64,000 bases of DNA from Eledone cirrhosa (GCA_964016885.1 OZ024740.1:184326001-184390000); one strand, 5' to 3'; counted from the stretch's first letter, positions 1,450-60,842 are shown. Translations and numbers: made by a program. The notes: generated from the letters alone by a model not told the origin.

Positions 1450-2424
1450 TAGTGTTTTTCCTCAAATTATGAATGTATAAAATATTCCCACTTGTTAGTT
1501 TCTAATAGTTAAATTTATTTTGTTAAATCTATTCAATTAGTTACGTTGTGTAGTATATATGTAATTAAGTACTGTATATATTATATTTACTACAGAATAT
1601 CTTTTATTTTCCAGATATATTCTTTGTGATCCTGTTTCTATTTTTGTACTCCTGAACTTTCTTTCTCAGTTTTCATATGATTTATTACAACAAAAATCAA
1701 TATTTATATACCACAAGTAATAACATGACAAACTAAATATGATGGAGAGAGGGATATGTAGCGATATACAAGTTTTAAGAGGGGGTGAGTATGAGAAAAT
1801 ATAGAAGACATAAATAATCCGTAAATATCTGTGTTAGAGAAAAAACAAAAGAGAGAGAGAGTGTTAAATATAAAAGAGAAGGGAAGAAACTAAAAAGATG
1901 AAGATAAAAGGAAGGAGATGGAGATATAATAGAGAATGGAATAAAGGTATTTAGTCAATCATGAGATTAACTTACTATACAAAAGAACCGATATGCAATC
2001 TTATAAGGTAAGGTAAAACATTATACACAATAATAACAATAACAGTAGCATTAGAAGAATAATTAATAAATGTCAATATGTTTTTCTCACTCAGTCAATG
2101 TTTTTTCCTAAATGTATATGATACTTGAAATATTCTTCCATATTTATGGAGGAAATTTGAAAATAGCTCATTTTTCTTATTAATTAAATTATCATTATTA
2201 GTAATTATTAATAGAGTCTCTAAATTGCAAAGATTGCAGTTTGGTGAGATGGAAGCGTTCTGATAGGATTCAGAGTTTCTAAGCTTTATATTTTTCTCTT
2301 TTAAAGACCATATTAGTTTTGATAATGAAGTAGAAATTTGTTTATCTGGATTAGAGAAAGAATGTTTATGGTTGGAAAAGCGAAGTTTAAAGTTCGATGA
2401 AGTTGCACCTATGTAGTTATTTGC

Positions 2425-2790
2425 AGCACAGTTACGTCCCTTTACGGACTGAGTTCAAATCCCGCCGAGGTTAACTTTGCCTTTCATCCTTACGGGGTCG
2501 ATAAAATAAAGTACCAGTAATACACTGGGATAATTGCTGGCCTTGTGTCAAAAGTAGAAACAATTATTATTTGTTTTAAGGGCGGTGGATTGGCAGTATC
2601 GGTAGAGGGTCGGACGCCATGCTTTGCATCATAGAGTTACGGCCTTTTATTATTTGAGTTCAAATTCCGCCGTGGTTAACTTTTCCTTTCATCCTTACTG
2701 GTTCGATAAAATAAAGTACCAGTAATACAATGGAGTCGATTTAATAGGACCCCCCCCCCAATTGCTGGCCTTGTGCCTATATAAGAAACC
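2425..2790 (+). mobile_element. Two adjacent tRNA-derived SINE copies (one partial) inserted in the PLE
   Basis: A-box-like GGATTGGCAGTATCGGTAGA, B-box-like GAGTTCAAAT(C/T)CC, conserved body CCTTTCATCCTTAC..GTCGATAAAATAAAGTACCAG, tail GCTGGCCTTGTG. Same family at 14319, 36298 and 62345. Confidence 0.75.
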
Positions 2791-4250
2791 ATTATTTGTT
2801 TTAATGGTACGTTTATATACTAAATTCTTATCAAGGCAGTTATTTTGCAAAGGGCATTCTGATTTCCTTCTACAGTTACAGTTCAATTCCATGCTATTTC
2901 TATAACCTAAGCTGTTCGTATTATCATTGTTAATATTTCTAAGTGTTCTAATATATGTATTTAAATTATTGTTATTGTTATTCACATTAATTACTGTATT
3001 ATTATTATTATTGTTATCATCGGTAATTATATTTTGGCTAGAATTAAGAATTCTGCTATTAATTATTGCAGTATTCTGCGCCATATTCATAGTTGTTGAG
3101 TAAGAAAGTTTAACTGTGTGTCTATTGAATACTTATGTGATCTCGGGAAACATTTATCTAAGGCTTTAATAAGTAAATGTGCTAAAGGTGTTTTAATAGA
3201 TAAAGACGCTGGTGGGGCATACCAAATAATAGATCTAGTTCTAATTTTTTCGCGGTTTTATTCTCCAAATTGTTATGTTATTTATATTTTTACACTCAGT
3301 TTTATTTGTATTATCTTATTATTATGAATATTGTGTTTATAATTATTATTATTTTTTCTACATATTCAATATTATTTATATATCCTACTTTATGTAACGC
3401 TTCATTATAATATCCAGCTTTACTATTAAAAATGGATTTGTTAGCAAATAATCTGGTTATACATTGTTGAACACTATTGACTGTTGCATTTTCAACATTT
3501 TTAGGATGATTAGAATAAAAACTAACATAATTTAGGTTTTCATTGGGTTTATGGAAGGGGTAATATAGACCTAAGTTTAAATTAAGGGTTACGTCTAAAA
3601 GGTTAACTATTTTACTGTTTTCTACTTACAATTTCATGTAATTTTTAAAGAATTCTATAATTACTTTCTTTACTCTATTTAATTCACTATTACTATGTTT
3701 AACTACAGTAAATAATATGTCATCTCTATATAAACCACCGGTAATCTCCGGCAATTTTCTATTTATCATATTAAGGATGAACATTCCCAGAAGATCGCTA
3801 ACTTGCGCGGAATCGGAAATCCCATAGTAATGACGAAATTCTTCTGCCTATCCGAACGAGTCCAAAAATCATTATTAAAATCAATCAAGGTTCGTCTAGC
3901 CGTTAAAATAATATTAATCTCCTCACTAGATAGATCAGTGTGCTTATATGCGTATGAAAGCGCCTTATTCAAAAGCTTGGGGTTATTGAGGAGTAGTAAC
4001 TCGCTATGTCCATAACACACTCTCTCTCTTTTGTTTTTTCTCTAACACAGATATTTACGGATTATGTATGCCTTCTATATTTTCTCATACTCACCCCCTC
4101 CTAAAACTTGTATATCACTACATATCCCTCTCTCCATTATATTTAGTTTGTCATGTTATTACTTGTGGTATATAAATATTGAGTTTTGTTGTAATAAATC
4201 ACTGCCAAGACTGGAATTCAACCATCAACACAGTTGAGGTATGTCATATA

Positions 4251-4312
4251 TTTTATCTGATGAATACGTACTGAAAAAACAGCACAGTACCTCCGAAATA
4301 AATATAATAAAA
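4251..4312 (+). ncRNA. Hammerhead ribozyme-like motif (type I) in PLE terminal repeat
   Basis: TTTTAT-CTGATGA-stem II (GTACTG..CAGTAC)-GAAA-TAAATA-TA-ATAAAA; the base of stem II is imperfect. Confidence 0.55.
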
Positions 4313-4353
4313 CATATTTTGATTATGTAAATGTCTCATTTATTAATATTATG

Positions 4354-4628: not shown

Positions 4629-4834
4629 TTCGTTTCAGAATTTGTTTAGCAAGATTCTTTATCTGAAATCGTGTGTTGAAACCGATATTGTTATACTTTG
4701 GGACGGTCATGTTGCCAATAAGAAACACACGCACTAGTTGCTTTCACATCAATTTATTATATATTTATAAATTTATAAATTTATAAATTTCTGGTTGGTT
4801 GGTTGGTTCCACAACCAGATAGTTGTTTATATAT

Positions 4835-4879
4835 AGTCATATTTCTTTCATCACACACTATGTGACCTCTTCAGTGACT
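4835..4879 (-). ncRNA. Hammerhead ribozyme motif (inverted copy)
   Basis: Reverse complement: AGTCA-CTGAAGA-GGTCACATAGTGTGTGAT-GAAA-GAAA-TA-TGACT. Confidence 0.6.
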
Positions 4880-6152
4880 GGGATTTCTTTCTTTGTTTCT
4901 GTGCTTCTCCTTTGTTCTGTCCTACGCCATTTTGTTTCTGTGTGTGTGTTGTGTGCTCAGTCTGCACATGCGCCACATCCGGGTGTCTGTGTGTGTTTAT
5001 GTTCATTTATTTATGTGTTTATTTACATGTTACTGGTTGGTTGTTTGTTCTATGTGTGTGTGTGTTTTCATTTTGTCCTTAATTGTAAGTTGTGATGTTG
5101 CTGTTCCACTCATATTTTCTATACTGATTGCGGATTTGGTACGGGTGATGAGAAATGTGTCCCGCATGTGCAACCCCGAAGAACTAGAGAGACACACACA
5201 ACACTTCATCCACCGTATGCAGTTCTCTGGCTACAATCATAGAGATAAAATCAGAGTGTATAGAGGAGCCAGAACCAAATGGGAAAAAATGGTAAATAAT
5301 GACATAAATGGGACCTGCCCCTTGTATAGGAGCAAATTTTGGAATAGAATAGAAAGAACTAGGAACAAGGCTAATAGAATAAACTCATGGTATGATAGCA
5401 ATAAATACCAGAGTGCAATGTTCATCGATACAACCCCTAGTGGTGAATTAGCTTACAAATTTAGAAGGGCCCTAAATAAACATAAACTCAAAATTAAGAT
5501 AGTAGAAAGACCAGGTACCTCCGTAAAAACACTGATTAAGCAAGACATACCGTTTTCAAAGACCCTCATGTATAGATAAGAAATGTATAACCTGTAAAAT
5601 AAGCCCCCATATTAACTGTAAAACTAGAAATGTAGTGTATAGCATAAGATGTACTGAAGGACAATGTAGAGACAAAAATATAGTGTACATAGGTGAGACA
5701 GCTCGTAGTGTAGGGGAACGGATAAATGAACACTGGCGAGACCTTCAAGATAATAAAGAATCATCTGTACTCTACCAACATGCTAAAATAGAACACAAGG
5801 GTAAATTAGAGAACATAGAAATAAAAATAGATTCTACACACAGAAAAGACGCAATGTTTAGACAAATTACAGAGGCAATAAACATAAAATAATTACAACC
5901 AAAATTAAATAGAAAATATAAGTGGAACAGCAACATCACTACTTACAATTAAGGACAAAATGAAAACACACACACACATAGAACAAACAACCAACCAGTA
6001 ACATGTAAATAAACAAATAAATAAATGAACATAAACACACACAGACACCCGGATGTGGCGCATGTGCAGACTGAGCACACAGCACACACACAGAAACAAA
6101 ATGGCGTAGGACAGAACAAAGGAGAAGCAGAGAAACAAAGAAAGGAATCCCC

Positions 6153-6197
6153 AGTCACTGAAGAGGTCACAGAGTGTGTGACGAAAGAACTATGACT
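6153..6197 (+). ncRNA. Hammerhead ribozyme motif (minimal type I)
   Basis: AGTCA-CTGAAGA-G-GTCACA gagtg TGTGAC-GAAA-GAAC-TA-TGACT; stems I and II pair. Confidence 0.7.
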
Positions 6198-6323
6198 ATA
6201 TATAAACAACTATCTGGTTGTGGAACCAACCAAACAACCATAAATTTATAAATATATAATAAATTGAAGTGAAAGCAACTGGTGCGTGAGTTTCTTATTG
6301 GCAACATGACCCTCCCAAAGTAT

Positions 6324-6356
<33 letters not shown>

Positions 6357-10213: not shown

Positions 10214-10434
10214 TTTTCTTTATTAACCATAAGGGTTTACATAAAGTAGACATTAAGGACAGTACAGGACTAGACGGTACAAATGGGCATTTCTGCGTGT
10301 AAAAAAGACAGAGGATGTAATAAAATAACAAAGAAAAATTCCCCAATAGGAGGGAGACTTCCGAGGGACATTTGTGGAGAAAGCCCATTAAAAAGCCACA
10401 GTGACCCTGACCACCAGGGCAAGTGCCCTCTCCC

Positions 10435-13400
10435 AGTTTTCCACCTTTAATTTACAGACACATACTCAGAGAAGGCCCATTCATTCGGGCCATAGTTGCT
10501 TCTCTCACCCATCTTTCAACAAAATGCTGGGAAGAGAGCACTTCCCTCTATACCAAGATTTTCCTTTTCAAATGAAATTTGAAAAAGTTAATCAGGGCAT
10601 CACCGAAGAGGTAAGTGCTCGTCTTCAGCCCTTTCAGACGTGTCCACCATACTATCTCTTTCGCCATGGCCACCAGACATATAAAAACTGCCTGCCCTTC
10701 CCGGCTAAAGGAAGAGGGCGGGGCAATCCTCACGATGGACTCAGCTGATAGCTGGATCCGTCCTACACGTGACAGCAGGTGTTCGACATAAACCCACAAG
10801 TCAGAAATGCTCGGACACTGGACGAGTGCGTGCAGGACGGTTTCGTCGCTCTGCGCGCGTCTCTGACATGCCCGGCTGACGACACCTCCATGCCTGTAGA
10901 GTTTATCCCGAACTGGCAAAGCTCCCCGGTAGCATTGCCAGGCCGTGGATTTCTGTAAATTGTCCATAGGCCCATGCCCGAAAGTCCGTCCGAAGTGATT
11001 GGCTAGTTGATTTTCGTCGACGCCTAGAGTTTCTCCAAGTCCGTCATCGCTCTTACCTTCCACTAATCCTCTATAGAACGCCAAGGTGGAGTTTCCACCG
11101 ATCACATTGCCCGATTTGTCGAGGGCTGTGAGCGCCTGAAGACATTCCAGTCTCCAGGCGCTCCCTCTCGGTCTTCGCTTAACCCAGGACTGCAGCTCCG
11201 TCAAGGAAACGAGCTGGAGAAATACGTGTCTAGCAAACAGCGACCACACCTGATCACCGTCGAGGAAGAAGTGGAGATGTCGTAGCCTGAGCGCGTGGCT
11301 GCGCATCATCAGCCACGGCATTCCCAGCCCTCCACGTAGCGGGTGTTGACAGCAGATGGAAATCCTGACCATCGGAGCGCGTCCCTTCCACAAAAAGCGA
11401 AAGAGCAAACACTCCAACGCAGTCAGGCGGGGCTTAGGACAAGGTACGACGGTCAGGCGGTAGCAGATGACAGACGCGATGTACGCGTTAGCCACCTCCG
11501 CTCGACCTTTCAGGGATAGCTTCCTCTCCGCCCATTTCTGGGTGAGAGAAGCCACCCTGCTCGTCACCTCGTCCCAGTTTTTGTACGTCTGGAGGTCCGG
11601 ACCGAACCAGACCCCTAGCAATTTAACCGGTCCGCCCGTCCAGCGACCACTACGCTGTTGGCCGGCATGGACCTGCCTCTCCAGGTGCCGAGCTGCAGGC
11701 CCACTGACTATTCCTGGTTGATCATTGCTCCTGTCCCGCTTCGTATTTTCTTAGTGTAGTGCCGATCGCCTCGATGTGTTTGGCGTTCGACACCACTACG
11801 GTGACATCGTCCGCATATGCTGACACGGATCTTACGCATCCTAGTTCGCGCGGGACGCCCCTCAACGTCTCCAGTTTGTGCAGTATGGCTAGAGAGTCAA
11901 TACGTACAAGAGGGACGAGAGGGGACATCCTTGGCTGACTGAGCGCATGATGTTGAACGGTTCCGAAGGGTGACCGTTCACCCTCACCACAGAGCAGATG
12001 TTGCTGTGCATGGCAGCGATCCAGCCTCTGAAGACGGGCCCAAAGCCAGCCGCCCTCAGGACTGCCGCTAGGTAACGATGGTCGACCCTATCGAAAGCTT
12101 TCGACTGATCTAAATTGATCAAGGACCCACCCGTGCCAGGTGCCCTAGCTACCCTCTCTACGAGGTATCGCATTAGGTGGAGGTTGTCGTGGATGGATCT
12201 GTCGGGAATGGCGCACGTCTGCGCCTCTCCCACCAGACCACCAACGACAAGCGCCAACCTCTTTGCTAGCGCCTTGGCCAAAACCTTGAAATCTGTGTTT
12301 AGCAGAGTTATGGGCCTGAAATGATTTATGTTATCCCCCTTGTTTGGATCCTTTCTCAGCAGTGACACGGCTCCTCGGCTCACAGAGCTGGGAATTCTCC
12401 CGTTCTGTTGCCAGATGCAGTAGACGTCCGCCAAGTGGCCTTCGAACAAGTCTGGAATCTATACGTAAAGTTCATAGGGCAGACCATCCAAACCAGGCAA
12501 TTTACTCCTTATGCAGCCAGTCATTGCCTCCCTTACTTCAGCGGCTGTTATCGGCTTTTCGCAACACTCCGCCTCAGTGGCCGAGAGCCGCGGCAGTCCG
12601 TTGAGGTAGACACTAAAGTCCATTCCTCAACCCGGCCCACCGCTGCCCCCGAACAGCTGAGCGAAGTGTCGCTGAAAAGCTGTATTCAAGACTGTGCTGC
12701 GGTCGTCGAGAGCCGAGGCAGTCCGTAGAGGTATGCACTGAAGTCCATGTCCCGATCCGGGCCGCCGCCGCTCCCGAACAGTTCAGCAAAGTGCTGCTGA
12801 AAAGCTTCACACATCCGCTCCGGTTCGAGCATCACGCACCCGTTTTGGTCAGACAAAGACCGGATCGTGGCTTTGTTGCCACGACGCGCCTCCGCCACTC
12901 GGGCCCATTGAACGGCTTTCGTCCCCTCGTGTCTGAGAGCACGCACCCTAGCTCTGACAACGCAGCATTCGTGCTTTGCATTGAAGAATTGGTCAAGGGC
13001 CAATTTCGCCGCAAGTACGTCGGTCGCGAAGCCTTTGCAAAGCGCCTCGTCTAATTTTCTAACTAATTCTCCCTCTGCTCTAATTTTCTATATTGCTAAA
13101 GCCTTACTAAACCTAATGGACTCTATTCTAATTGCTCTTTTCAGAGCAAACCACCACTTGTTGTTGACGTGTCACCCGTCAACGCCCGCTTAACTAGTTC
13201 GCTAATCCGTTCTCTGTAGGCCTTGCACGCTGGTAAGGACGCGTTTAGCTTCCAGTAGCCGGGTCCTCGTCTATGAAGCCTATCTAAGTCAAGCACACAT
13301 ATCACGAATTTGTGGTCCGTGTAGCTGACTATCTTGAATTGTGGACAGCCTATGCTAGACCTATCTATTTCCCTACAAAATACTCTATCTAGATATGATC

Positions 13401-14001
13401 TGGATGACCCTATGCGATTTTTCCATTTCCACATTGGTACATCCGGGAACTCCAATCGGTACCTCTCAGACAGTTCAAAACGCCTGAGCAGGTTGTTGAG
13501 ACTCTTTCACCCTCCACCCCTATCCAATAATCCCACATAGTGCCAGCGTGCATCTAAGATCCCGTTCCAGTCGCCCACTAACACTAAAGAGCGGGACGTT
13601 CCAAGAAAGGTCTCCAGACGCCGGAAGAAATCAGGCCGCCCTGCTCCTGTCGGGGCATAGACGGCCACTAACCTGAAAGCTTGCTCGTCTCCGCTGGTCA
13701 CGTCCAGCACCACCAACTTACCTTCTGGGTCCAGGAAGATGGCCCGTATGGCAAGATCCAAACCTCTCCGAAAAAGCACAGCAACTCCACCCCCCCCCCC
13801 CCCCGTTCCCGGACGGCTGGGAGATGCGTACACATCGTAGCCGCCGAAGATCGGTGCGAAGGCCCGTGCTACGGAGATTCTGGTCTCGCTGATGGCCACT
13901 ACATCTATGTTTAGTGACCTGAGGTCGTTGAGCAGGTGGCCCTGCTTCCATGACGACCCCAAGCCACGCGCATTTATGCTGCCTATTCTGAGTGAGGTCA
14001 T
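10435..14001 (-). pseudogene. Tx1-like ORF2 (AP endonuclease, reverse transcriptase, C-terminal zinc finger), frameshifted
   Basis: LRIGSINARG, AISET, LVGDWN, YLDRVF, YTDH (APE); FRPITLLNTDFK, LDQSKAFDRVDH, SQGCPLS, AYADD (RT); ETVLHALVQC. Confidence 0.9.
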
Positions 14002-14029
14002 GTTGAAAAGGAGTGGAAAAGATGGGAAA

Positions 14030-16077
14030 GACCACTTACCTTACTTCTCGTAGAGGAAGGACGGTTTTTCCATCCTTTTCACTGCTTGTGGCCTCCTCAG
14101 GAAGGATGTCCTTATAAATCCTCCTGGAGAGTGCTTGTCAGAAATATCCGATGTCTTTGGGGAATTTTTGTTTTAGTGTCATGTACGTTTTCTGTGTGAT
14201 GCGAGTGATTTGTATGTGTGGAGGTGGTGTGAATTTTTGGGTTGTTGTGTAGTCTTTTTCTGTGATGCTGGTGTTGTGTTGCATGTAGTGTAATAATTGG
14301 TTGTTGTTCAAATTTAATTGTTTCTACTTTTTGGCACAAGGCCAGTAATTACCCAGTGCATTACTGGTACTTTATTTTATCGACCCCGTAAGGATGAAAG
14401 GCAAAGTCAACCTCGGCGGGATTTGAACTCAGATCGTAAAGGGACGTAACTATGCTGGAAAGCATGGCGTCCGACCCTCTACTGATGCTGCCAATCCACC
14501 ACCGTTCAAATTTAATGCTGTGTAGTGTGTATCGTTTTGGTTGTTTTGTTTTGTTTGCGTTTGTTGTGGGTTTGTTTCTGTTTCGCATTTTGGTGACTTT
14601 TGTGGTGTAGGTGATGGTGGTGTTGGGGTTAATGTTGGTGATGGTGTTGGTGTTTGGGGTGATGGGGTTGGTGATGCTGGTGTGGATGGTGGTATATCTG
14701 TCCTAACTTTTTTTGTTTGTTAATTTATTTGTTTCCCTCTGTATTTTGTTTTTGGAGGGGGAAGGAAGAGAATTTTTTCTTTTTTGGTTTCTTTTTTGTT
14801 TTCCTGATACCGTTTCCCACTCCTCGTCGTCACAATTTGTCTCCAGTTGTGATAGGCCGGGGAGTGGAAAATCCTCCACAGTCGTTAGTTTTGGTTGTGG
14901 CGTGGTGGATGGTGTAGGCGCTGGTGCTAGTTCTGAAGCGTTGGGTGGTGGTGGTGTTGGTTTTGCTGGTGGTGGTGGTGTTGGTTTTGCTACTGTTGAT
15001 GGGTTTGTTGCTGTTATAGTTGCTTCAGTTGTTGCTACTACAGTTGTTGCTGCCATCTCTGCTACTGGTTGTGTTGATGGTTGAGTCACTGGGGTGGGTA
15101 GGAGAGGTGGCCTCAACATTTTAGCCTGAGGGCAGAAAGCCCTTAGGTGGGTTCCTTCACCACAAACGACACACCTAAGCCTTCTGCCCTCGATAATTAC
15201 GGTGAGGTGGCTGCCGTCAGTGAGGACTATTACCTCTGGGATCTCCTCAATGCTTTTTTGGTCCGCTTGGATCAGGAGCTCCATCCCAGATCCGGACCAG
15301 TTCTCCTGCTTTTCTTTTGCTATTGCTATTATCTTTGTGTTGGCTTCGATGCCGGCGAGGACGGCCGCTATTAGCCAGGGAATTTAGATGGCCGGTGGAA
15401 CGTGGGTCACCCTGATCTTTACGAGTCTCTGGCCACAATAGCTTGGGACGAGTGTGAAGTCGTCACTTCTTAATGGGGCCATGGAGTGTTCTCTAGCCTC
15501 CTCTGGTGTTTCAAAGAACATGTCCACGGGTCCATACTTCTGTCCACGTCTGATGTGGGTTTTTCTTGCCCACACATTTCCCAAAGCTTTTTGGATTTGG
15601 GACTCGGACTCGATGCGATTTTACATTAATTATTCGATACGACACGGTGCATAGGCGCCGATGCTCCATTTTATTAGGGGGGGGGGTGAGGCTGACCCTG
15701 TACCCATCTTTCTTTACCATTTTTTTGGCATTTTTTAATTCCTCCTGAGTTACCGTAAATGCTTCGCACTGGTTTGCTACTCTGGCAAAACTCAGGGTGG
15801 TTTTTTTAATGTCATTGTTCCTGTTGTTGTTATCGTTATTTTTGTTATTATTAATTTTAGTTTCAGTTGTGGTGGTGGTGACGTCAGTGGTGTTCGGTGT
15901 GGATGAGTCCATTTTGGTTGAAAACATTTCGACATCACGAGTTGATTTGTTTTTTCCTTTTGTTTCTGTTGTCGCGGTGGTGGTGGGGGTGGTGGTTGTC
16001 GCGGTGGTGGTGGTGGTGGCGGCTTTAACACCTGCAGTCATTGGTAATGGCGGGAAATTAATGTCTGCCTGAGACAA
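14030..16077 (-). pseudogene. Tx1-like ORF1 (gag-like, zinc knuckle), disrupted
   Basis: IEGRRLRCVVCGEGTHLRAFCP (CX2CX4HX4C); Thr/Pro-rich low-complexity flanks; stops and frameshifts. Confidence 0.8.
14319..14503 (-). mobile_element. Full-length tRNA-derived SINE with 13-bp target-site duplication
   Basis: TSD GTTCAAATTTAAT at 14306-14318 and 14504-14516; nearly identical to the copy at 62345-62520. Confidence 0.85.
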
Positions 16078-16421
16078 ATTTAAAATATTGCTACTGCTTA
16101 TATTTTTTTTGTGTTGGCAAACGTAGTAACATTTACAATGGTGGTGTCAGTGTGAGGTGTTAATTTGTGAGGAAGGCTCTTAGCTGCTTGGTGCAGAGGT
16201 GAATTAGCCATTTTTTTTTTAAAGAAATTTTTTGATAATCATAAATGTTTAAATTTTGGGCACAAGGACCCAATCTTTTTGGGTGTCCTTTTCGGAAAAC
16301 AATGTATGTGCGCTTATATATAGTTAACAATAAAAATTTTCCATAAAAGGCAATTTTTAACAAACGGAAATAACAAACATTTGCGGAGCTCACGATGATA
16401 CGATTTACTACGTAGGTCGCC

Positions 16422-16453
<32 letters not shown>

Positions 16454-16739
16454 TTTCTTTATTGGCCACAAGGGCTGACATAAAAAAAAACATCACAGAC
16501 GGAACAGAACGGTACGATGTGGGTTTTGTGCGTGCAAATATTTTTATTATTTATATAAGAAAAGAAAAAATACATAAAACATATATATATATAAACAATA
16601 AAATGAAAATTGAAACAATGAAAAATTTCCCAATAGGGGGGAACCTCCGAGGGTTACTCGTGGCGAAAACCACACAAAAGACCACGGCCACCCTGACTAC
16701 CGGGGCAAGCGCCCTCTCTCAATTTTTCCATCTCTCAAA

Positions 16740-42689: not shown

Positions 42690-42870
42690 CGGTTATGAAA
42701 CCAACCAAACATCGGGAAATTTATAAATTTAATTTATAATAAATTGGAGTGAAAGCAACTGGTGTGTGTGTTTCTTATTGGCAACATGACCCTCCCAAAG
42801 TATAACAATATCGGTTTCAACACACGTTTTCAGATAAAGAATCTTGCTAAACAAACTCAGAAACGAAATA
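42690..42870 (+). mobile_element. Isolated 3' tail of the 4629-6330 PLE family
   Basis: Matches 6225-6330 and the reverse complement of 4629-4810; another tail fragment at 62522-62602 (minus). Confidence 0.75.
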
Positions 42871-43236: not shown

Positions 43237-43244
43237 TATATTAT

Positions 43245-45240: not shown

Positions 45241-45398
45241 ATCATCTGATGTTTTTACATTGAGCTACTTAACTTACTGGTAATAAGGTAGTAATACATT
45301 ACTGCCTACCACTATTTAGGGTGTGTATAAAAAATACTTATAACTGCATAAGGTTTTGTATTTACATAACCATAAATAGTAAAACTAATACTATATGT

Positions 45399-49100
<3,702 letters not shown>

Positions 49101-49102
49101 TG

Positions 49103-49604
<502 letters not shown>

Positions 49605-49620
<16 letters not shown>

Positions 49621-50458
49621 TACATATACATATATAAAATTATAGATATATATATGTTGCAACCGCTCACTTTTAAGCTCTATGAAGAATTAATAAATTA
49701 AATAATCAGAGCAATATATCATAAATCATGTCTTTAGAATTATTAGATAAAATATATACCGTTTCTTCTTCCAATTAGCATAATTAACCATATAAGAAAT
49801 CAATTAGACCAAGCTATAAGAGGAAAGACTCTTATGAAGAAATCTTCGACAAATAACCGAAAGTGGCCTCTTCGCGGTGGCCCCAATATAGTATATTTAT
49901 CCAACATTTCGACAGCATGTAGAAACTGACTAAATATATCATCAACCATACACAATTAGGTGTAAAATTAAACTTAGAAGAAATGTGTACATACCGTAAT
50001 TATATCTCTACCATGGTTTCATCCGTATTTTTAGACATCCAATTAATACGAAAGTCCTGAGTTAGGATTTATCAGGGGACAAACTCAAAATCATACATCT
50101 AGTTTTTCAACCTGAGCCCGCCAAAATTAGATTAAAAAATGGCTAAAAATCGCTATGTCACTGTGGTCAAGCTAGAAAGAATGTGATTGGCTGCTTACGG
50201 CGGGTAGGCTTGTTGCTAGAAAGCGCAGCCAAATATCGCCAGATTTAATCTAAACCCAACGGGAGATTATTAAATATAAAGGTTTACATATACATATATA
50301 AAGTTATAGATATATATCTTGCAACCGGTCACTTTTAAGCTCTATGAAGAATTAATAAATTAAATAATCAGAGCAATATATCATAAATCATGTCTTTAGA
50401 ATGGTTAATTATGCTAATTGGAAGAAGAAACGGTATATATTTTATCTAATAATTCTAA
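49605..50458. repeat. Unclassified repeat with direct (49605-49740 / 50270-50402) and inverted (49737-49790 / 50403-50458) duplications
   Basis: Direct reading; joined directly to the broken 3' end of the neighbouring PLE ORF. Confidence 0.6.
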
Positions 50459-53400
50459 TGTGATGTAGTCTTCGAGCGAAGTGGAGTGCCTTAGTTTTTC
50501 TATTTGTGAAAGAGTGGAGATGTGTTCGAAACCTAATTTTGAACGGGCCGGAGGTAGCCCCTATATAATGTTTAACGCTATTGTGGCTAGTAATAGTGCA
50601 TCTATATATAACCCTATCAGTCATGCAGTATCCTCTAAGGGGGCAGCGTCCTCTGTCGCGGCAGTTGCAATTTCTGTCGCGGTTCCGTCTATTTCCCACG
50701 ATAAGGCTATCATTGTTGCTGCCTACGTTGTTATCTACGCTATCGCAGCTGTCGTTAGCACCATTACAACCCACAGAACGTGGGGTGGTGCGATTGTTAT
50801 TCAGCACGTCATGTCCTGCATGTTCCCCAGTTATTTCGCGGTTATGCTGGTTGCGTCTGCGGATGCCGTTGTCAACACTATTGGATGCTGCCAGGGAGTT
50901 GTTAAGGCCGATATAGTTATTGTCAGCTGTAGGTGCGTCTGTGTCGAGGTGCTGTGTCTTGGTGATCTTACTGTGGTTCGTTGTTCCTATGATGTCTGCT
51001 AGGTTAGGAGTAGTAGTGAAGGATATTTTTATATTGTTCCTGTTAAGAATGTTTCTATATCTATGGTTGGGCGGGAAGTTCTTCTCTAAGGCTTCGAAGA
51101 ACATCCGGGGTATGTTGGAGGCCACACTCCGAGAGTGGGGGGGGGGGGACAATAGGACATTACGGTGGCGATTACGTGTCCTTGTACTTTTGCTACGGGT
51201 GGTTCCATCTAGGTGACCGCTCTTATGTGTGTTAATCCGCAGTCGCCCGTTCGGTGCCCCTTTCACTTTATGCTCGGGTGCACTCTTCCTACCTCTTCCA
51301 TGTTTATGTACACGAAGATGTTGGCTGGAAGGCGTTGGTAGTAGGCCGTCGCCTTTGTTGGTTTGGTAATAGGGGAATAGTTCGAGTAATCTACATTGTT
51401 CACCGTCGCCGTGGTCGTGATCTTTAGTGCGGTTATCTATTCCATTATATCCGATCAACGAGGTCTCCGCGTGATCGGTTATAGGTATGGCTTACTATAA
51501 CGTTCGTTTTATGAGGGGGTGGTTTCTAGAGCTAGCGTTAGGGATGTATGAAATTCCTCGGTTAAAGCCGGCAGCTTATCAAGGCCCTATTGTAGTAATC
51601 TGCCGCTTGGTTGAAGATATCCTCATTGGCGGATAGCCTCGAGATTCTATGTGAGATACTATAGACTATGGAGTTGAGAGTCTTCTTAGGGTGGTTGGAG
51701 GCATAATTAATATAAGAGAGGCACTCTCCAGGCTTATGGTATGGCTTGTATAAGCCCGTACTCAACTCCAGGGTCACGTCCAGGAAGTTGACAACACTGT
51801 GGTTGAGGTCCATAGTTACGGATAGGTCGTATAACTTCAAGAACCTGTGTATATGTTTGTTAAGGTTCTCTATCCTACGGGGGCTATGGTTCCTAACGGT
51901 AAACAGGGCGTCGTCCCTATATATACCTCCTTGTAGGGCCGGTATCTCTTTCCTAAGCTTATGTAGGAGGTATATCCCGACCAGGTCAGTTGCTTGCGCT
52001 GAGTCACTGGACCCCATCGTGACATCGAAGTTATCAGGACGGTTGGTTCTGGTCCAGTGGGAGCCTTCGAACTGGATTATTCTTTCTACGCGCCGCTAGA
52101 ATTATGTCTATTTCTTTTTTAGTGAGGCTAGTGTTAGATCTTGCTAAGATAAGTGCCTTATTTAAGAGTATGAGGGAGATAGAGGAGTAGTAACTATCTA
52201 TATCAAACTGGATGAATTTCAAGGTAGCTTTATCCGGCAACTCGGTGAACCAATTTATGACCTGGTCGGTGTTGCCCTAGAGGCAGACCTTAGCCTTTCT
52301 ATTAAGCTCCAGTAGTACTCTGTCGAGGATCACTTTACTAATCTTACCTATATCTGATGTAGAGGGGCACATTAGTCTAACAGAGGGGCTTTCATTAAAG
52401 TGATATTTGTGATCCTTAAGAGAGAATTTAGGCGTGAGAGGGACGTACGGGTTAGTGTACTTTTCTATTTCTAAGCTGGTGACTATATCCTTCCCTACTC
52501 TATTTATGTCATTTAGGGTACTAGAGGGTGTCTTTTTGTAGTCATTGTGTAGTTCCTTATAGATGATTTTTTTATACTTACTCGCGTCCATCTTGTACAG
52601 CTTTTTGGTTTTGTCGGAGGTGACGAAGATGTGCGGGTCATTCTTGATCTTAGTTATTAGTGTATCAAGGGACGTTAAGAATGGATTGCTGCATTGGTGT
52701 TTCTTTCTGAACTTAATGTTTTTGATCATTTTCAGCAGGTCCTCTTCAAAGGAGTCCAGTAAGGTGTTGTGCGGTGGGTTTCGGTATGTTTTGAAGCCAT
52801 ACCTCTCTTTGGGTTCAGGAAGGTTACGGGTGTTCTCGTCCAGGTGGTAGGCCTTCTATCTGACTCTCCGTATAAACGAATTAGTAGCGTCTATAAGCAG
52901 TTTAAGGTAGGTTTTTCTGCTGGGTAAGGGGATACACTTGAGAGACATGGGTAACGGCTGGTTCTCCAACATAATGGCAAATAAGGTGAGATGCTCTACA
53001 AAAGGAGCACAGTAATACAGTATTTACGTATCAAGAAAGAGAAAAAGGGGGAGGATAGGTGATACATATAGTTATTTGCCAAGTAGCGTATGCCAAAGGT
53101 GCTCGATACTAGTGCCGGCAGTATTAAATATTCGAAGTGTTAATATTTAGTGGGCTAGAGAGTTAGCAGAGCGTAAGTACGTGGGAAAGTAAAAAATCGG
53201 AGAATAGACCGTTAAAACATGTTTATTTAAAACAGCACCTACGTACGTATCGCCCAGTTGGGCTTCTCAAGGGCATAAATAATGAAAAGTGTTCCTTATA
53301 TTGCTCGGAAAGAGATTTTGGGGTTAAATCCACATCAAGGTTCATTGCTCGCAAAAAAAGCTTGTGTTGATTTTGCAGCAGGTCAAGGGAGATAACTCCG

Positions 53401-53985
53401 GCCGGTGTTAGGGCAGTCTTACCCGGACAATATTATTTTTTTTTTTGCCGCATCTGTTTGTCTGAGGCTGGGTCTGGTATGCAAGGATTGTTTCCTGGGT
53501 GTTATTTTGCAGCGCTTGCCCGCCGGGGTGTTAAGACTTGTTGCAGGGAGATCCGGTGTACGGTTTCACTCCTCATCTTTAACCCACCTGAAGAAGGATA
53601 TTTTTAAGCGATGTGTTAAACTTATCGCTGTTTCAGCTTTGTTGTTGATGAGCTCGTGGGGTGCAGTTATGATGTGGTAGAGCTCCATGAGGCAAAGATC
53701 GCATTTCCTCTTGAAGTTGTACGGTGCAGCCCTACCGACAACCTCCCAGTGCGTGGAGAAGCTGATGTTTAAGTCCTTTAGTGATGTGATGTAGTCCGCG
53801 AGCGAACTGAAGTGCCTTAGTTTTCTATTTGTGAAAGAGTGGACTACATCACATCACTAAAGGAATATTTAATACTGCCGGCACTAGTATCGAGCACCTT
53901 TGGCATACGCTACTTGGCAAATAACTATATGTATCACCTATCCTCCCCTTTTTTTCTCTTTCTTGATACGTAAATATTGTATATA
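50459..53985 (-). mobile_element. Near full-length Penelope-like element in partial-tandem (pLTR) arrangement, disrupted
   Basis: ORF from ATG 52972 (SLKCIPLPS..FIRRVR, FDIDSYYSSI, MGSSDSA, GGIYRDD, VIYRC..HYIGATS..RFRTH). Upstream 52975-53845 is the 3' end of a preceding copy (ORF end plus UTR). 53864-53985 is an inverted copy of 53015-53135. Confidence 0.9.
53235..53274 (-). ncRNA. Hammerhead-like motif, U3:A8 variant, in pLTR
   Basis: Reverse complement: GCCC-TTGAGAA-GCCC aact GGGC-GATA-CGTACG-TA-GGTGC. GATA replaces GAAA, so this copy is probably inactive. Confidence 0.55.
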
Positions 53986-54003
53986 TATATATATATATAT
54001 ATA

Positions 54004-56246
54004 TTGGAATAAATGCTCTGAAATAGCGATATATATGTGAATATAGACATAGAATATTCGAAAATATTCTGTATGTTTATAATAAACATTTTGAAGACCT
54101 AATCGCTATAGAATAGAATACGTCACGTATTACAATTAGATTCTCGATAAAAGCAAGGGAAGTAATCTACGCGTTTCATTCTCGTTAGAAATCATCAGGA
54201 CTACATATCCAGTGCTTTTATCGAGAATGACACAGCTAGAGACTTATAGAATACTTAGCTGTGTACAGGAACTGGTTTGAAAGAGCGGTTGCCGGTCCGG
54301 CAGAAATTAGAAATTGGAATAAATGCTCTGAAATAGCGATATATATGTGAATATAGACATAGAATATTCGAAAATATTCTGTATGTTTATAATAAACATT
54401 TTGAAGACCTAATCGCTATAGAATAGAATACGTCACGTATTACAATTAGATTCTCGATAAAAGCAAGGGAAGTAATCTACGCGTTTCATTCTCGTTAGAA
54501 ATCATCAGGACTACATATCCAGTGCTTTTATCGAGAATGACACAGCTAGAGACTTATAGAATACTTAGCTGTGTACAGGAACTGGTTTGAAAGAGCGGTT
54601 GCCGGTCCGGCAGAAATTAGAAATTGGAATAAATGCTCTGAAATAGCGATATATATTATAAACATACAGAATATTTTCGAATATTCTATGTCTATATTCA
54701 CATATATATCGCTATTTCAGAGCATTTATTCCAATTTCTAATTTCTGCCGGACCGGCAACCGCTCTTTCAAACCGGTTCCTGTACACAGCTAAGTATTCT
54801 ATAAGTCTCTAGCTGTGTCATTCTCGATAAAAGCACTGGATATGTAGTCCTGATGATTTCTAACGAGAATGAAACGCGTAGATTACTTCCCTTGCTTTTA
54901 TCGAGAATCTAATTGTAATACGTGACGTATTCTATTCTATAGCGATTAGGTCTTCAAAATGTTTATTATAAACATACAGAATATTTTCGAATATTCTATG
55001 TCTATATTCACATATATATCGCTATTTCAGAGCATTTATTCCAATTTCTAATTTCTGCCGGACCGGCAACCGCTCTTTCAAACCAGTTCCTGTACACAGC
55101 TAAGTATTCTATAAGTCTCTAGCTGTGTCATTCTCGATAAAAGCACTGGATATGTAGTCCTGATGATTTCTAACGAGAATGAAACGCGTAGATTACTTCC
55201 CTTGCTTTTATCGAGAATCTAATTGTAATACGTGACGTATTCTATTCTATAGCGATTAGGTCTTCAAAATGTTTATTATAAACATACAGAATATTTTCGA
55301 ATATTCTATGTCTATATTCACATATATATCGCTATTTCAGAGCATTTATTCCAATTTCTAATTTCTGCCGGACCGGCAACCGCTCTTTCAAACCAGTTCC
55401 TGTACACAGCTAAGTATTCTATAAGTCTCTAGCTGTGTCATTCTCGATAAAAGCACTGGATATGTAGTCCTGATGATTTCTAACGAGAATGAAACGCGTA
55501 GATTACTTCCCTTGCTTTTATCGAGAATCTAATTGTAATACGTGACGTATTCTATTCTATAGCGATTAGGTCTTCAAAATGTTTATTATAAACATACAGA
55601 ATATTTTCGAATATTCTATGTCTATATTCACATATATATCGCTATTTCAGAGCATTTATTCCAATTTCTAATTTCTGCCGGACCGGCAACCGCTCTTTCA
55701 AACCAGTTCCTGTACACAGCTAAGTATTCTATAAGTCTCTAGCTGTGTCATTCTCGATAAAAGCACTGGATATGTAGTCCTGATGATTTCTAACGAGAAT
55801 GAAACGCGTAGATTACTTCCCTTGCTTTTATCGAGAATCTAATTGTAATACGTGACGTATTCTATTCTATAGCGATTAGGTCTTCAAAATGTTTATTATA
55901 AACATACAGAATATTTTCGAATATTCTATGTCTATATTCACATATATATCGCTATTTCAGAGCATTTATTCCAATTTCTAATTTCTGCCGGACCGGCAAC
56001 CGCTCTTTCAAACCAGTTCCTGTACACAGCTAAGTATTCTATAAGTCTCTAGCTGTGTCATTCTCGATAAAAGCACTGGATATGTAGTCCTGATGATTTC
56101 TAACGAGAATGAAACGCGTAGATTACTTCCCTTGCTTTTATCGAGAATCTAATTGTAATACGTGACGTATTCTATTCTATAGCGATTAGGTCTTCAAAAT
56201 GTTTATTATAAACATACAGAATATTTTCGAATATTCTATGTCTATA

Positions 56247-56250
<4 letters not shown>
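54004..56250. mobile_element. Retrozyme-like tandem array 2 (same 310-bp unit)
   Basis: About 2.1 antisense units (54004, 54314, 54624), a flip near 54655, then about 5.1 sense units (hammerheads at 54844, 55154, 55464, 55774, 56084). One substitution seen (54775). (TA)n on both flanks. Confidence 0.9.
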
Positions 56251-56321: not shown

Positions 56322-56322
<1 letters not shown>

Positions 56323-56503
56323 GCAAACATCACGGACGCTCTATCTCAAAATTATTTTTGAAAAGCATTAGATATGCGCAACCGGTAAAACTTAAAACCA
56401 AAACTTAATACTAACCAATACTATTACTAATTATCACTTATTCCTAATTAAACTATTTTTCACTGTGAACAATTTGTCATCATTTTCTATTCCGTTAACC
56501 AAT
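56322..56503. repeat. Dispersed repeat fragment (probable PLE tail)
   Basis: Reverse-complement homolog at 60563-60756, which folds back into a palindrome at 60685-60842. Confidence 0.6.
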
Positions 56504-56619: not shown

Positions 56620-57090
56620 TAGAATTAGAGCTCTGAAATAGCAATATATATATGGATGTATATATAATGTATTTTGCAATACACTTTATGCTTAATTAAA
56701 AGCATTTTGAAGACCGTACGCTATTGTTTCAGAGTAGTGACAAATTCACTTACTTTAATCTCAGCAAACAGGGGAGATAAGCCGACAAGGGCCTTGTTTC
56801 GCTTTTGTTGAAGCTTATCAAGGCTAACTACCCCTCCTCTCTACTGAGATTACTGATGTTATATTCTTATAGAATTCTAGTAAATAATCAGGAGCTGATT
56901 ATACAGACCGATTGTTGGTCAGGCAGGAATTAAAAATTAGAATTGGACCTCTGAAATAGCAATATATATATGGATGTATATATAACGGTCTTCAAATATA
57001 TATATGGATGTATATATATATATATATGGATGTATATATACGGTCTTCAAAATGCTTTAAATTAAGCATAAAGTGTATTGCAAAATACAT

Positions 57091-57357: not shown

Positions 57358-57545
57358 TATTGTTATGATTGCTAGATGTATTGTTGCTGTGATTGTTAGA
57401 TGTATTGTTGTTATGATTGCTAGGTGTATTGTTGCTGTGATTCTTAGATGTATTGTTGTTATGATTGCTAGATATATTGTTGCTGTGATTGTTAGATGTA
57501 TTGTTGTTATGATTGCTAGATGTATTGTTGCTGTGATTGTTGTTT
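57354..57545. repeat. 24-bp minisatellite with alternating A/B units
   Basis: TATTGTTGTTATGATTGCTAGATG alternates with TATTGTTGCTGTGATTGTTAGATG, about 8 units. Confidence 0.85.
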
Positions 57546-57929
57546 ACTTCACCGTTATTGTTGTTGTTACTCTTATTTCTACCATTGTGGTTGTTACTTT
57601 TATTGTTTCTTGTTTTTGTTGTGTCTATCATTAATGTTGCTACATGTATTATTTCTATTATTACCACTGTGGTTGTTGTTGTTACCGTTATTACTACTGT
57701 GATCGCTACAGCTGTGTCTGTAGTTAATGTTTCTATTATTATTATTATTATTGTGGTTGTTGTTGTTGTTCTGTCTATCGTTAGTATTATTACCATTATT
57801 ACTATTTCTCACTCTCCTGCTATTGTTATTGTTATGGCTATTACTATTATAGCTGTTATTTCTATACTCAGAGTTATTGTTTATATTACTACTACCGTTA
57901 TTATTGTTGTTGTTGTTGTTTACTTTTGA

Positions 57930-58390
57930 ATTCTAACGTATTTTTGTGAAACACTTTTCCAGCTTCGTTTTGCACTCAATAAGGTTAATCTTTTTGTAGA
58001 TGGCAATTTTTGGTGGTAGCTGCAGGATTTGTTGTTCTTGTTCACTGATTAAAGTGTTCCCATAAATATTTACTGTGTGGTCATTGGTAAATTGTTCCGG
58101 TAGTTTTACATCAGTCATACGGATATTGTTAATGTTATCTGTGTATTTTTGAGAATACTCTATTCTCCTTTCTTGTAGTTTTTTCTTATTCATACATTCT
58201 AATTTCTTATTGAAATGCCTATTGCATTAGATTAGGGCGTATTTCGTTTCACGTCGGATGATGCTCATGAAGTCATCCCTTTCGTTTGGTGTGGTGAGAT
58301 TTTGGACTTCCTTACCGTTAATGCGTTTCTGTCTGTAGAGTTCGTTGACTTTTGTGTATGTTTTACCCATACATTAACATTGATTTTGGT
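57930..58390 (-). pseudogene. Inverted N-terminal PLE ORF fragment
   Basis: ..EQQILQLPPKIAIYKKINLIECKTKLEKCFTKIR resembles the pre-RT region of PLE proteins; abuts the plus-strand RT fragment. Confidence 0.5.
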
Positions 58391-58399
58391 GTGGAAAAA

Positions 58400-60560
58400 T
58401 GTGTTGAGATGATCATTGAGAGTGAGGTGGAGTTCGGCGACGTCGAGACAAACGAACTGGGCCTCCTACTTAGACTTACCTACGACACTGACTACTTAGA
58501 CGGCCATGACCTTAGACGTTTCTGCCCCAGTAGACCCATAAGAGGTAGACCCCCCACCATAACCTCAATGGCTAAAATGACTCCCATGGGAAGGTGGATT
58601 GGGTGGACCAAAGCTATACGGACCCCCAAAACAATGATCAGGTGAGAAAAATGGTCGCACATGCAATAGGGGCTAGTATCAAAACTACCCTAAAGGGCCA
58701 CATATTCAAGTTCAACGAGAAGATCTACACCCAAAATGAGGGAGCAGCCATTGGCGTCAGCATAGCTGGTGATGTTGCCAAACTTTTTATGGTATGGTGG
58801 GTAAGGAGACTTAAAGATCTCCTTAATGAGAGCTCCATAGACCTCATCATGTACTCTCGTTACGTAGACGATATCAATATAGTTATAAGAACATCCCCAC
58901 TGGAGAGCACTAACAAGTTTGATTTAGAACGTAGCACAATCGAAAGCATCCAGCAGATAGCTAATTCCATACACCAGAGTATAACTGTAACTATCGACTA
59001 ACTACCCTTCCAAACACCCTAACAATAGACTACCTGTATTAGAGACGGAACTCTGGTTTAACACTATAGACGAGAGAACCCAAATTCTCCACTCACACTA
59101 TACTAAACCTATGGCCTCCAAATACCTGATACTCAAAAATTCAGCAATGTCCAGTAGTGCTAAGTTTAACATTCGGATCGCAGATTTGGTACGAGTGATG
59201 AAGAATGTGTCCCGCATGTGCGACCCAACAGAAATGGAAAGACACATCCAACACTTCATCAACCGCATGCAGTTCTTTGGCTACAACCAAAGAGACAGAG
59301 TCAGAGTATACGAAGGAGCCATGGAGAAGTATAAGACCCTCATAGAACTGGATATGAAAGGAATTTGCCCATTATACAGGAGCAAATCATGGAATAGCTT
59401 AGATAGGGCTAGACATAAGATAGGGAAAGCCACCTCATGGTACGACAACCAGAGATGCCAGAGTGTCATGTTTGTGGACGCTACCCCTGGAGGGAAATTA
59501 GCTAACCAGTGTAGAAAGGCCCTGAGAAAGACCCACTTAAAGATTAAGGTGGTAGAAAAGCCAGGAACCACCACCAAATCCCTGATCATCAAAACCTACC
59601 CTTTTAAGAAAACCCACTGTACTAATAGGAAATGTATCATATGTAACGTAAACCCCCGGATATACTGTAAAACTAGAAACGTGGTCTATAGCATAAGATG
59701 TACAGAGGGTACTTGCAGAAACATGACAACAACATACATAGGCGAGACAGCTCATAGCATAGGTGAAAGGATAGACTAACACTGGGGGGAACTAAAAGGA
59801 CGAAAAAACGGATAAGTAATATACGAACATGCCAGACAACAAAACGACGGTAACATAGACAACATATAAATTAGAATAATATCTAAATATAGAAATGACC
59901 CAGCAGATAGGCAAATCAGAGAGGCCAGTGAAATAGAACTTAGAAGGCCAAGGCTAAACAGAAAGAATGAATGCAATACCAACAACACCCAAACAAACAA
60001 CACTGACCTAAGAGAAGTATAAATAAATAAATAGATAAATAAATAAATAAATACATACACAAGCACAATAACAACAAACACATATAAACACACACTAGTA
60101 AAGATAGAATACATTAACCAATGCACAGTCACCCAATCACGAACACACATCAAACAAAACACTATACACACACGCAAACGCATGCGCAAAGAAGACAAAA
60201 TAAAATAAACAAATAAATAAATATATAAACAGACTAAATAAAGATGGCGTAGAAAATACAATGTAACAGGAGCAAACAATAGCACCACTAACGATTTTGC
60301 AGATGTGCAACGAAAGAACTTTGATAAACTGTATATATGTGTTTGTGTCTATATTGTATCTGTATTATTTTTGATCGCTGGTCAGTCAATGGCAACATTG
60401 AGGACCGAATAAATAAGATTACCGATATAATAGACACAGAAGCAAAAAGCGAAAACCAACCAAACAGTGAGTGTGTTCTGTTATTAATTCTGGCAATATT
60501 ACACAAATATGACCCTCCCCAAGTATAACGATATTTGTTTCGACACACGATTTCATATTA
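58400..60560 (+). mobile_element. Penelope-like element (RT + Cys-rich linker + GIY-YIG), disrupted
   Basis: FKFNEKIYTQNEGAAIG, YSRYVDDI, CTNRKCIIC..CKTRNVVYSIRC..YIGETA; degenerate hammerhead at 60284-60325 (CTAACGA core). Confidence 0.88.
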
Positions 60561-60842
60561 TATATTGGTAAACGGAATAGAAAATGCTGACAAATTGTTC
60601 ACAGTTGAAAAATGGTTTAATTAGGAATAAAAGAGTATTAGTGATTGTATGGGTTAGTATTCAGTTGTGGTTTTAAGTTTTTAAGTTTTTACCGGTTGCG
60701 CATTTCTAAATGCTTTTCAAAAATAATTTTGAGATAGAGTGTCCGTGCTGTTTGCTCTGCTCTGATCAGAGCAAACAGCACGGACACTCTATCTCAAAAT
60801 TATTTTTGAAAAGCATTTAGAAATGCGCAACCGGTAAAACTT

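Follow-up and report, generated by a model that had tools for sequence, protein, structure and literature searches.

Among Penelope-like elements (PLEs), the inverted 5'-truncated form is the most frequent one for Penelope in Drosophila virilis (PMC2377424), and head-to-head copies are the most frequent form in Adineta vaga (PMC3846280). Head-to-head copies with a tail on one side and a bias towards (TA)n have been described (PMC8557442) and also figure in a curation guide (PMC8969392), and pairs of hammerheads on opposite strands, 100-700 bp apart, have been noted (PMC4209133). Almost all families of the Hydra clade insert in (TA)n, Hydra-1_Obim of Octopus bimaculoides being listed with that preference (PMC8557442), and 31 recently active Penelope-like families are reported from Octopus vulgaris in a paper whose available text returned no mention of retrozymes or ribozymes in a term search (PMC13282606). 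The stretch analysed here (the window) is 64,000 nucleotides of one strand of Eledone cirrhosa DNA (GCA_964016885.1 OZ024740.1:184326001-184390000), an AT-rich sequence in which 40 (TA)n tracts make up 5% of the total and hold nested insertions, and which carries nests of PLEs.

Twenty PLE-related units were delimited in the window (Table 1), and insertions of PLEs, and of non-autonomous RNAs using the PLE machinery, are the best explanation for them. They share with canonical endonuclease-bearing (EN+) PLEs, D. virilis Penelope and A. vaga Pen1-6, the head-to-head 5'-truncated copy, the one-sided tail and palindromic junctions, together with a partial tandem plus inverted pseudo-long terminal repeat (pLTR, at E50), target-site duplications (TSDs) of 8-10 bp and Asn-rich inserts in the open reading frame (ORF) (PMC2377424, PMC3846280). 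They differ in their confirmed tails of 35-77 nt (putatively up to ~120 nt) versus 30-40 nt, and in a rule for the pairing of element ends and a TAT end motif that are not stated in the available text of those two papers. The head-to-head layout, the one-sided tail and (TA)n targeting are already published and are ordinary for specialists, so that most of what follows is known biology in new family members. Three features were not found in the literature checked: the pairing of one long with one short end at every testable locus, the TAT motif at the short end, and head-to-head retrozyme arrays with fixed termini and, in one of them, a TSD. These, with the PLE footprint on retrozymes, are what the analysis adds, drawn from one window. 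The origin of inverted pLTRs and tails and of the microsatellite preference has been named as an open question (PMC8557442); the window supplies countable rules for it, namely one long and one short end, TAT at the short end and fixed retrozyme termini.

A first-pass annotation of the window had described nearly every PLE-related insertion as a tails-outward inverted structure, mostly at (TA)n. All ten pairs of inverted arms that it listed were recovered by self-BLAST and pairwise alignment, at 85-100% identity, and both 310-bp retrozyme arrays are present and head-to-head. The window gave 31 local inverted high-scoring segment pairs, versus none in each of 10 block shuffles. Inverted units beyond that list are 32111-32185, the pLTR pair of E50, R2 (56620-57090) and N58. 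With sense orientation read from ORF strand, hammerhead strand or family homology, 13 of the 14 pairs with overlapping arms have their 3' ends outward. The census counts 16 inverted and 4 simple units among the 20, and 'most' therefore describes them better than 'nearly every'. A non-coding PLE scrap stands out more readily if it is palindromic; this biases the non-coding share upward, and for this reason the subset detected by protein homology (ORF-bearing), with 7 of 8 inverted, gives the fairer figure. The census leaves out two inverted features, 42478-42651 and 49608-50458, which have no ORF, hammerhead or family link. A search of the 5' ends of the four simple copies revealed no short inverted piece (p 0.06-0.9). 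The preference for (TA)n held up: a TA run of at least 10 nt lies within 20 nt of 22 of the 32 outer ends (2.1% of background positions), and one of at least 6 nt within 20 nt of 29 of the 32 (5.0% of background). Several tail ends were positioned by the TA tract itself, and the non-circular count, restricted to alignment-defined ends, is 13 of 14 adjoining (TA)n over a baseline of ~2%.

The ends of the inverted units follow a simple rule. A locus was taken as testable where its tail is confirmed by another copy or by a tandem unit, and at all eight such loci (N5, E31800, E32111, E33588, E45, R310a, R310b and R2) a long end is paired with a short end, giving a tails-outward unit with the tail on one side only (P=0.004 if the ends chose independently between two equally used sites). 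Tails measure 77, 77 and 44 nt in the E45 family, 56 nt in N5 and 35 nt in both retrozyme arrays, and R2 has a tail homologous to the latter; E32111 has both end types on arms that do not overlap at all. By the strict count, the short end closes on an alternating TA run of 3 nt or longer (TAT) in 7 of 10 families, against a per-site null of 0.075-0.167 (P=1.3e-4 with the null set at 0.15). In R310 and R2 the short end extends into an 8-10-nt TA run if a mismatch or gap is allowed for; E2 lacks such a run. Although 7-19 TAT motifs are present nearby, a single fixed short site is used.

Dual-end target priming is the best model for this layout and is slightly more likely than not to be correct. 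Following published biochemistry and clade biology, the GIY-YIG nuclease would nick both strands within a (TA)n tract, and each target 3' end would prime its own cDNA on the element RNA, one from a distal start site, the other from a site lying 35-77 nt upstream at which the TA end could pair with a UAU motif. The cDNAs would stop independently or at a shared barrier and would then be united head-to-head, with 0-4 nt of microhomology and in some cases following a short snap-back; the junctions themselves are observed, with microhomology of 0, 3 and 4 nt where computed and 1-2 nt by eye for E31800 and E33588. Failure of the second priming would leave a simple 5'-truncated copy, as in the remaining 4 of 20 units. 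On a circular or multimeric retrozyme RNA each end could copy several unit lengths, producing a head-to-head array in one event, and the sequence fits a template of one RNA or two.

We favour dual-end priming because the arms of E32111 and N58 do not overlap, because retrozyme arms start at unrelated phases yet end at the same two phases, because long and short ends are paired at all testable loci and a single short site is used, because short ends finish in a TA run, and because R310a carries a TSD. In N58 the plus-strand part is preceded by a segment from the N-terminal part of the ORF in inverted orientation (57358 to ~58355, minus strand), which includes an Asn-rich stretch; residues 1-59 of the homologues map to minus strand 58118-57936 and residues 327-875 to the plus strand, a non-overlapping geometry like that of twin priming. 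In L1 twin priming, the second target end primes internally by microhomology and leaves an inverted 5' segment, and the geometry of N58 and E32111 is alike. L1 arms do not overlap, the internal site is variable and the route is a minority one, whereas here the arms usually overlap, the second site is fixed and the route is that of the majority in the window. Dual priming also draws support from the anole Poseidon protein (PAc), which in vitro cleaves AT-rich DNA, extends both strands, initiates reverse transcription at two sites bounding the tail and is a predicted dimer (PMC11167929), although it belongs to another clade, its start site is reported to be non-homologous to the target and the available text does not deal with inverted products.

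The closest contender is a self-primed hairpin, in which the RNA or cDNA folds back and primes itself; the GIY-YIG nuclease then cleaves the two arms at TA-like sites that are staggered and links them to the (TA)n target with a one-sided tail. Self-priming was proposed from palindromic junctions in A. vaga (PMC3846280) and the tail has been attributed to EN-mediated resolution (PMC8557442); such a hairpin also accounts for obligate asymmetry, for TAT at the short end and for a tail on either arm. Purified Poseidon, on the other hand, primes on nicked target DNA on both strands (PMC11167929), the extrachromosomal intermediate is not reported in the portions of the literature examined, the retrozyme junctions join unrelated phases with overlaps of 0 and 3 nt, and N58 joins non-overlapping ORF segments. 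We regard the hairpin as possible but rather unlikely. Five centres with a spacer of at most 9 nt (P6357, E31800, E33588, P42957 and X60) and a true 24-nt snap-back copy at the E50 junction weigh against dual priming, since self-priming predicts both.

Other points also tell against dual priming or qualify its evidence. In four single-copy families the tail is a putative one, read from an unpaired extension that reaches the nearest TA tract; the TAT of the short ends may be no more than a tiny TSD; E32111 could have begun as a palindrome, its centre being lost later via its 4-nt microhomology; the four loci of the E45 family, having one site in common, are a single family in the count; and the pair 60683/60842 is not confidently orientable, its right arm ending inside a composite and not at (TA)n. 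All counts come from a single window. The earlier proposal that dual-end priming is the default route across unrelated families is accordingly narrowed: dual priming is the best reading and fits the in vitro Poseidon data, but the published self-priming and EN-resolution model also fits the sequence; 'default' holds within the window; and the families amount to two PLE clades and one retrozyme lineage.

A single target-primed cDNA could instead snap back at its 3' end, copy itself and join the other target end at TAT microhomology, by the snap-back end-joining pathway of the host. The asymmetry of long and short ends would then be automatic, and E45, G36, R2, R310a and the E50 junction fit. 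In N5 and E33588, however, the tail sits on the arm that reaches less far inward, so that this arm is not a fold-back copy of the other, and the route cannot yield these two loci; nor can it yield the non-overlapping arms of E32111 and N58. The long-ended arm of R310b is shorter than its partner, and a snap-back would not select one fixed TAT among 7-19. As a general route this model is refuted by N5 and E33588, and we consider it improbable overall; single loci may still fit it.

Single insertion events are the best reading of the inverted units, because R310a has a TSD, private variants are shared by paired arms and no TA tract lies between joined arms. The N5 arms differ from each other at 5 of 135 sites and from the solo copy at 16-18; those of E31800 differ at 0 of 51 versus 5 to E45 and have two private variants in common; and those of E33588 share three. 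Set against this, the E33588 arms show no greater likeness to each other (8 of 53 sites differing) than they do to other loci (7-9), and those of E45 are uninformative over the 51-nt core (5 versus 5 differences). The first-pass annotation had named arm divergence as the check for separate insertion times, and by that check N5 and E31800 fit a single event and E33588 and E45 leave the matter where it was. Two separate insertions of opposite orientation into one (TA)n hotspot, or later rearrangement with palindromes over-counted, would be in keeping with the insertion nests in TA tracts, the four simple copies, the recovery of non-coding scraps mainly when inverted and the uninformative arms at those two E45-family loci. 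Yet the arms are joined directly, neighbours are always of the same family and head-to-head, the homology-detected subset is itself mostly inverted, and the N5 and E31800 arms are closer to each other than to the solo copy and to E45, respectively; with the TSD of R310a, this makes separate insertions a slightly more remote prospect than the one-cDNA snap-back. An assembly artefact from fold-back (chimeric) long reads is very improbable. It would explain the near-identity of the R310 arms (1 substitution in 3,962 nt) and of those of E31800, but divergence between arms is 1-15% in most units, the flanking DNA shows no mirroring, one-sided tails lie at family-fixed positions and R310a has its TSD.

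The two retrozyme arrays show the same layout. Their 310-bp non-coding unit, with 12 hammerhead copies that are consecutive in each of four arms, matches the sequence definition of a non-LTR retrozyme (tandem non-coding units of 150-450 bp, two or more of them in a row carrying a type I hammerhead). R310a has arms of 3.59 and 1.95 units and R310b of 2.10 and 5.15. The phases at the junctions are unrelated (154 versus 9 and 304 versus 255), and in both arrays the long ends lie at phase 26 and the short ends at phase 301, 35 nt apart. R310a is flanked on both sides by an 8-11-nt direct repeat and has a junction microhomology of 0 nt; a TSD search on six units gave a distinctive repeat for R310a only, the others showing TA runs or 5 nt. 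Like described metazoan non-LTR retrozymes, these have tandem non-coding units, here of 310 nt, a type I hammerhead per complete unit, low GC and a TSD of more than 4 bp, and PLEs have been proposed as mobilisers (PMC7229834; bioRxiv 10.64898/2026.07.22.740005). They differ in being head-to-head, with a 35-nt tail of PLE type and fixed termini; a term search of the available main texts of these two papers gave no description of inverted arrays or tails. Likewise, nothing matched, by title or abstract, for inverted arrays of retrozymes bearing a PLE tail or for PLE twin priming, which is weak evidence as most subscription papers, including the 2005-2006 PLE reviews, lay outside the search.

The identity of the enzyme mobilising animal retrozymes has been argued from co-occurrence and phylogeny only (PMC7229834; bioRxiv 10.64898/2026.07.22.740005), and local amplification with unequal crossover has been suggested for retrozyme tandems (bioRxiv 10.64898/2026.07.22.740005). 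The common layout suggests that PLE enzymes insert retrozyme arrays too: a PLE tail and a TSD on a retrozyme array would be a physical footprint of PLE-type integration, and this argues against growth of R310a and R310b by local unequal crossover. All-against-all comparison of 17 terminal regions gave strong links only for E2-P39875, N5-N58 and R310-R2, with two weak pairs at z 4.4-4.6, and because there is no strong link beyond R310-R2 the autonomous partner of the retrozyme was not pinpointed.

The paired arms amount to 4,117 bp of duplex, and arms occupy ~13% of the window. Octopus has exceptional hyper-editing and double-stranded RNA (dsRNA) potential and was excluded from the repeat-level analysis, and lizard Penelope is heavily edited (PMC5625713). 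On these grounds the formation of long dsRNA from the inverted arms, raised by the first-pass annotation, is plausible as a potential. We put forward tentatively, with rather less than even confidence, a wider picture in which retrozyme arrays would be written in one step by a PLE enzyme from two fixed priming sites on a circular or multimeric ribozyme RNA copied in both directions, inverted pLTRs and tails in clades that target (TA)n would generally originate through the long/short rule with TA:UAU pairing, and the inverted units could be a main source of octopus dsRNA potential and hyper-editing.

The coding units appear to belong to two clades, Hydra (E2, G36, G43, E45, E50, G60) and a Neptune-like group (N5, N58). 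Full-length homologues placed reverse transcriptase (RT) and EN colinearly in E2, E45, E50 and N58 (tblastn), and Pfam matches to GIY-YIG and RVT_1 were weak and below cut-off. The Hydra assignment is motif-based, on the definition of PMC8557442, and was set beside published families by description only. E50 carries DKT in place of DKG, and a stop stands at the W of its RWK; the N-terminal piece of G60 has RVRWKA, and the other copies lack this region. The CxCX5C linker is present in E2, E45, E50 and G43 and degenerate in G36, and CxxC and CxH around the conserved E and N are both found in G43 and G60, with one cysteine altered in E45 and in the upstream E50 copy. These motifs, the C-terminal EN, the hammerheads and the (TA)n targets are as described for the Hydra clade (PMC8557442); what differs is the concentration of at least six distinct copies or families in 64 kb. 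In N5 and N58 an in-frame CX4CX2C linker, within the CX2-5CxxC pattern of the Neptune clade, separates thumb and GIY-YIG (CIDKKCITC and CTNRKCIIC), and a GIY-YIG at the C terminus after this linker and microsatellite targeting are shared with the Neptune clade (PMC8557442, PMC3846280). Their RT motif A-B interval (58361-58760, plus strand, in N58) is 124-125 aa in four homologues versus 53 in a Hydra-type homologue; this length, like that of an insertion in the fingers domain (IFD), is not described for canonical C-terminal-EN clades in the available text of those papers (PMC8557442, PMC3846280), and N5 and N58 are classed by motif as Neptune-like only. The Naiad clade, with EN N-terminal to RT, was rejected, as EN is C-terminal in all ORF-bearing units that keep both domains. 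The only named protein match was an Octopus vulgaris hypothetical protein, with 59% identity to the N58 ORF. Asn-rich in-frame stretches occur in PLE ORFs at 57358-57935, 2880-3080 and 50650-50950 (all minus strand), with 28-38% N in the two measured.

Hammerhead calls come from our own pattern scan (18 type I matches in the window versus 0-1 per shuffle), Rfam at gathering thresholds giving no hammerhead in the window and a weak tRNA-like match only. Strict type I hammerheads occur in P6357, P39875, P42957, G43 and G60; the N family has a hammerhead core that the strict scan missed, the E45-family core is degenerate, and none was found for E50 by the pattern scan. The pLTR recurs as a partial tandem and/or inverted 5'-truncated copy, inverted copies accounting for the inverted units of the census and E50 having both a direct (53015-53133) and an inverted one (53863-53979). 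At the simple N-family copy the 5' end (42669) coincides with the predicted cleavage site, and the right arm of P39875 begins (40036-40040) within 4 nt of one; most other inner ends do not match such a site. Ribozyme-cleaved RNA may sometimes be the template, unlike in the in vitro Poseidon result. In both arms (48994-49095, plus; 45650-45750, minus) the E45-family pLTR resembles a hammerhead in layout but with a non-canonical core. Its putative stem II has a 3' strand just 5' of which both the centre of E31800 and that of E33588 lie, which suggests a shared RT stop.

Table 1. PLE-related units and other retroelements of the window, with inverted arm pairs and their identity (clade names are motif-based; simple units have no inverted partner).
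Unit	Coordinates	Strand	Arm pair	Identity	Features
E2	1678-4350	-	1678-1866/4013-4201	96.3%	Hydra-clade PLE, RT to EN; inverted arm 4013-4201
N5	4629-6327	+	4685-5122/5909-6331	96.7%	Neptune-like PLE, thumb to EN; inverted arm 4685-5122; 56-nt tail solely on minor left arm
P6357	6359-6862		6356-6546/6548-6738	96.9%	Near-perfect palindrome; outward type I hammerhead in each arm; unpaired ~120-nt extension on right (putative tail)
E31800	31800-31984		31877-31931/31933-31987	100%	E45-family palindrome; 77-nt tail left
E32111	32111-32185				E45 family; tails outward, arms non-overlapping; short end left, long end right; 4-nt junction microhomology
E33588	33588-33743		33585-33637/33647-33699	84.9%	E45-family palindrome; 44-nt partial tail right; 9-nt spacer extends left (short-ended) arm
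G36	36086-38958	+	36080-36899/38237-38870	92.6%	Hydra-clade PLE, thumb to EN; ~630-bp inverted arms; pair contains SINE-like repeat and internal duplications; ~90-nt unpaired extension on right, then RT-coding LINE fragment
P39875	39879-40186		39875-39934/40036-40095	95%	Hammerhead-bearing pLTR inverted unit; ~95-nt extension right (putative tail)
R310a	40194-41907				Head-to-head array of a retrozyme with 310-bp unit and type I hammerhead; long end on left, short end on right
Solo N-family pLTR end	42669-42867	+			Simple; full tail
P42957	42890-43202		42957-43079/43082-43205	94.3%	Near-perfect palindrome, outward hammerhead; ~65-nt extension left (putative tail)
G43	43242-45391	+			Simple; 5'-truncated Hydra-clade PLE with EN, long 3' untranslated region (UTR), hammerhead 45139-45185; (TA)n on both sides
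E45	45561-49103	-	45638-46537/48223-49106	95.5%	Hydra-clade PLE, RT to EN; 883-bp inverted arm 48223-49103; 77-nt tail on main left arm
E50	50459-53979	-			Near-full Hydra-clade ORF; upstream 5'-truncated tandem copy; 3' end lost
R310b	54003-56250				Second head-to-head retrozyme array; 3-nt junction microhomology
Solo fragment	56322-56501				Simple; kin to 60566-60842 arm, between two TA tracts; PLE status indirect
R2	56620-57090				Diverged relative (67%) of 310-bp retrozyme; ~1.1 units and an inverted arm of 57 bp; its termini are homologous to the long and short ends of R310
N58	57358-60554	+			Neptune-like PLE; RT motif A to 3' pLTR at 58361-60554
X60/G60 composite	60566-62170	+	60683-60762/60764-60842	98.7%	Palindrome 60683-60842; inverted Hydra N-terminal ORF piece 60843-61034 (-), then EN, 3' UTR and hammerhead on plus strand up to (TA)n
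Solo tail-region fragment	62533-62602	-			Simple; N58 family
RT-coding non-LTR elements	10.3-28.9 kb and 38.9-39.9 kb

The asymmetry of E2 needs separate comment. Its right arm continues to ~4350 via a hammerhead-like pLTR, homologous to that at 39879 (z=11), and these ~150 nt are missing from its left end, which does not lie at (TA)n; this may reflect a later deletion. A reading of 4202-4238 as a host exon split by E2 was rejected as less likely, as the segment aligns with the pLTR of P39875. In G36 the arms contain internal tandem duplications at 38435-38719 (a 143-bp pair) and 36525-36576 (12-bp unit) that are unequal between arms. Of the two features left out of the census, 42478-42651 has 28-bp inverted arms around a central (TA)n tract, with TA at its right end and no PLE mark; 49608-50458, which has a 133-bp direct repeat with a 58-bp inverted piece beside it and abuts E50 at the latter's truncated 3' end, had no ORF or hammerhead that we could find and could be another non-autonomous PLE-type insertion.

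No credible host exon was found by Pfam on 113 ORFs outside the main coding stretches (5 sub-threshold matches), and an intronic location is therefore not supported. Elsewhere in the window, 10327-24073 (minus strand) holds two related non-LTR elements with AP-endonuclease and RT, presumably of L1/Tx1 type, at 79-86% identity and near (AAT)n tracts. Another broken RT-coding long interspersed nuclear element (LINE) at 25998-29200 (plus strand) terminates at an (AAT)n tract, and a short C-terminal fragment resembling it lies upstream at 24221-24598 (plus strand); no inverted arms were found in these two pieces or in the RT fragment at 38965-39860. A dispersed repeat of ~150-190 bp, resembling a short interspersed nuclear element (SINE), occurs at 2420-2790, 14310-14510, 36303-36440 and 62341-62520, two of the copies lying inside PLE insertions, that within E2 as a dimer (~2420-2790). 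The tRNA-like match, at 63801-63864 (minus strand) and at the Rfam threshold, is probably a SINE head.

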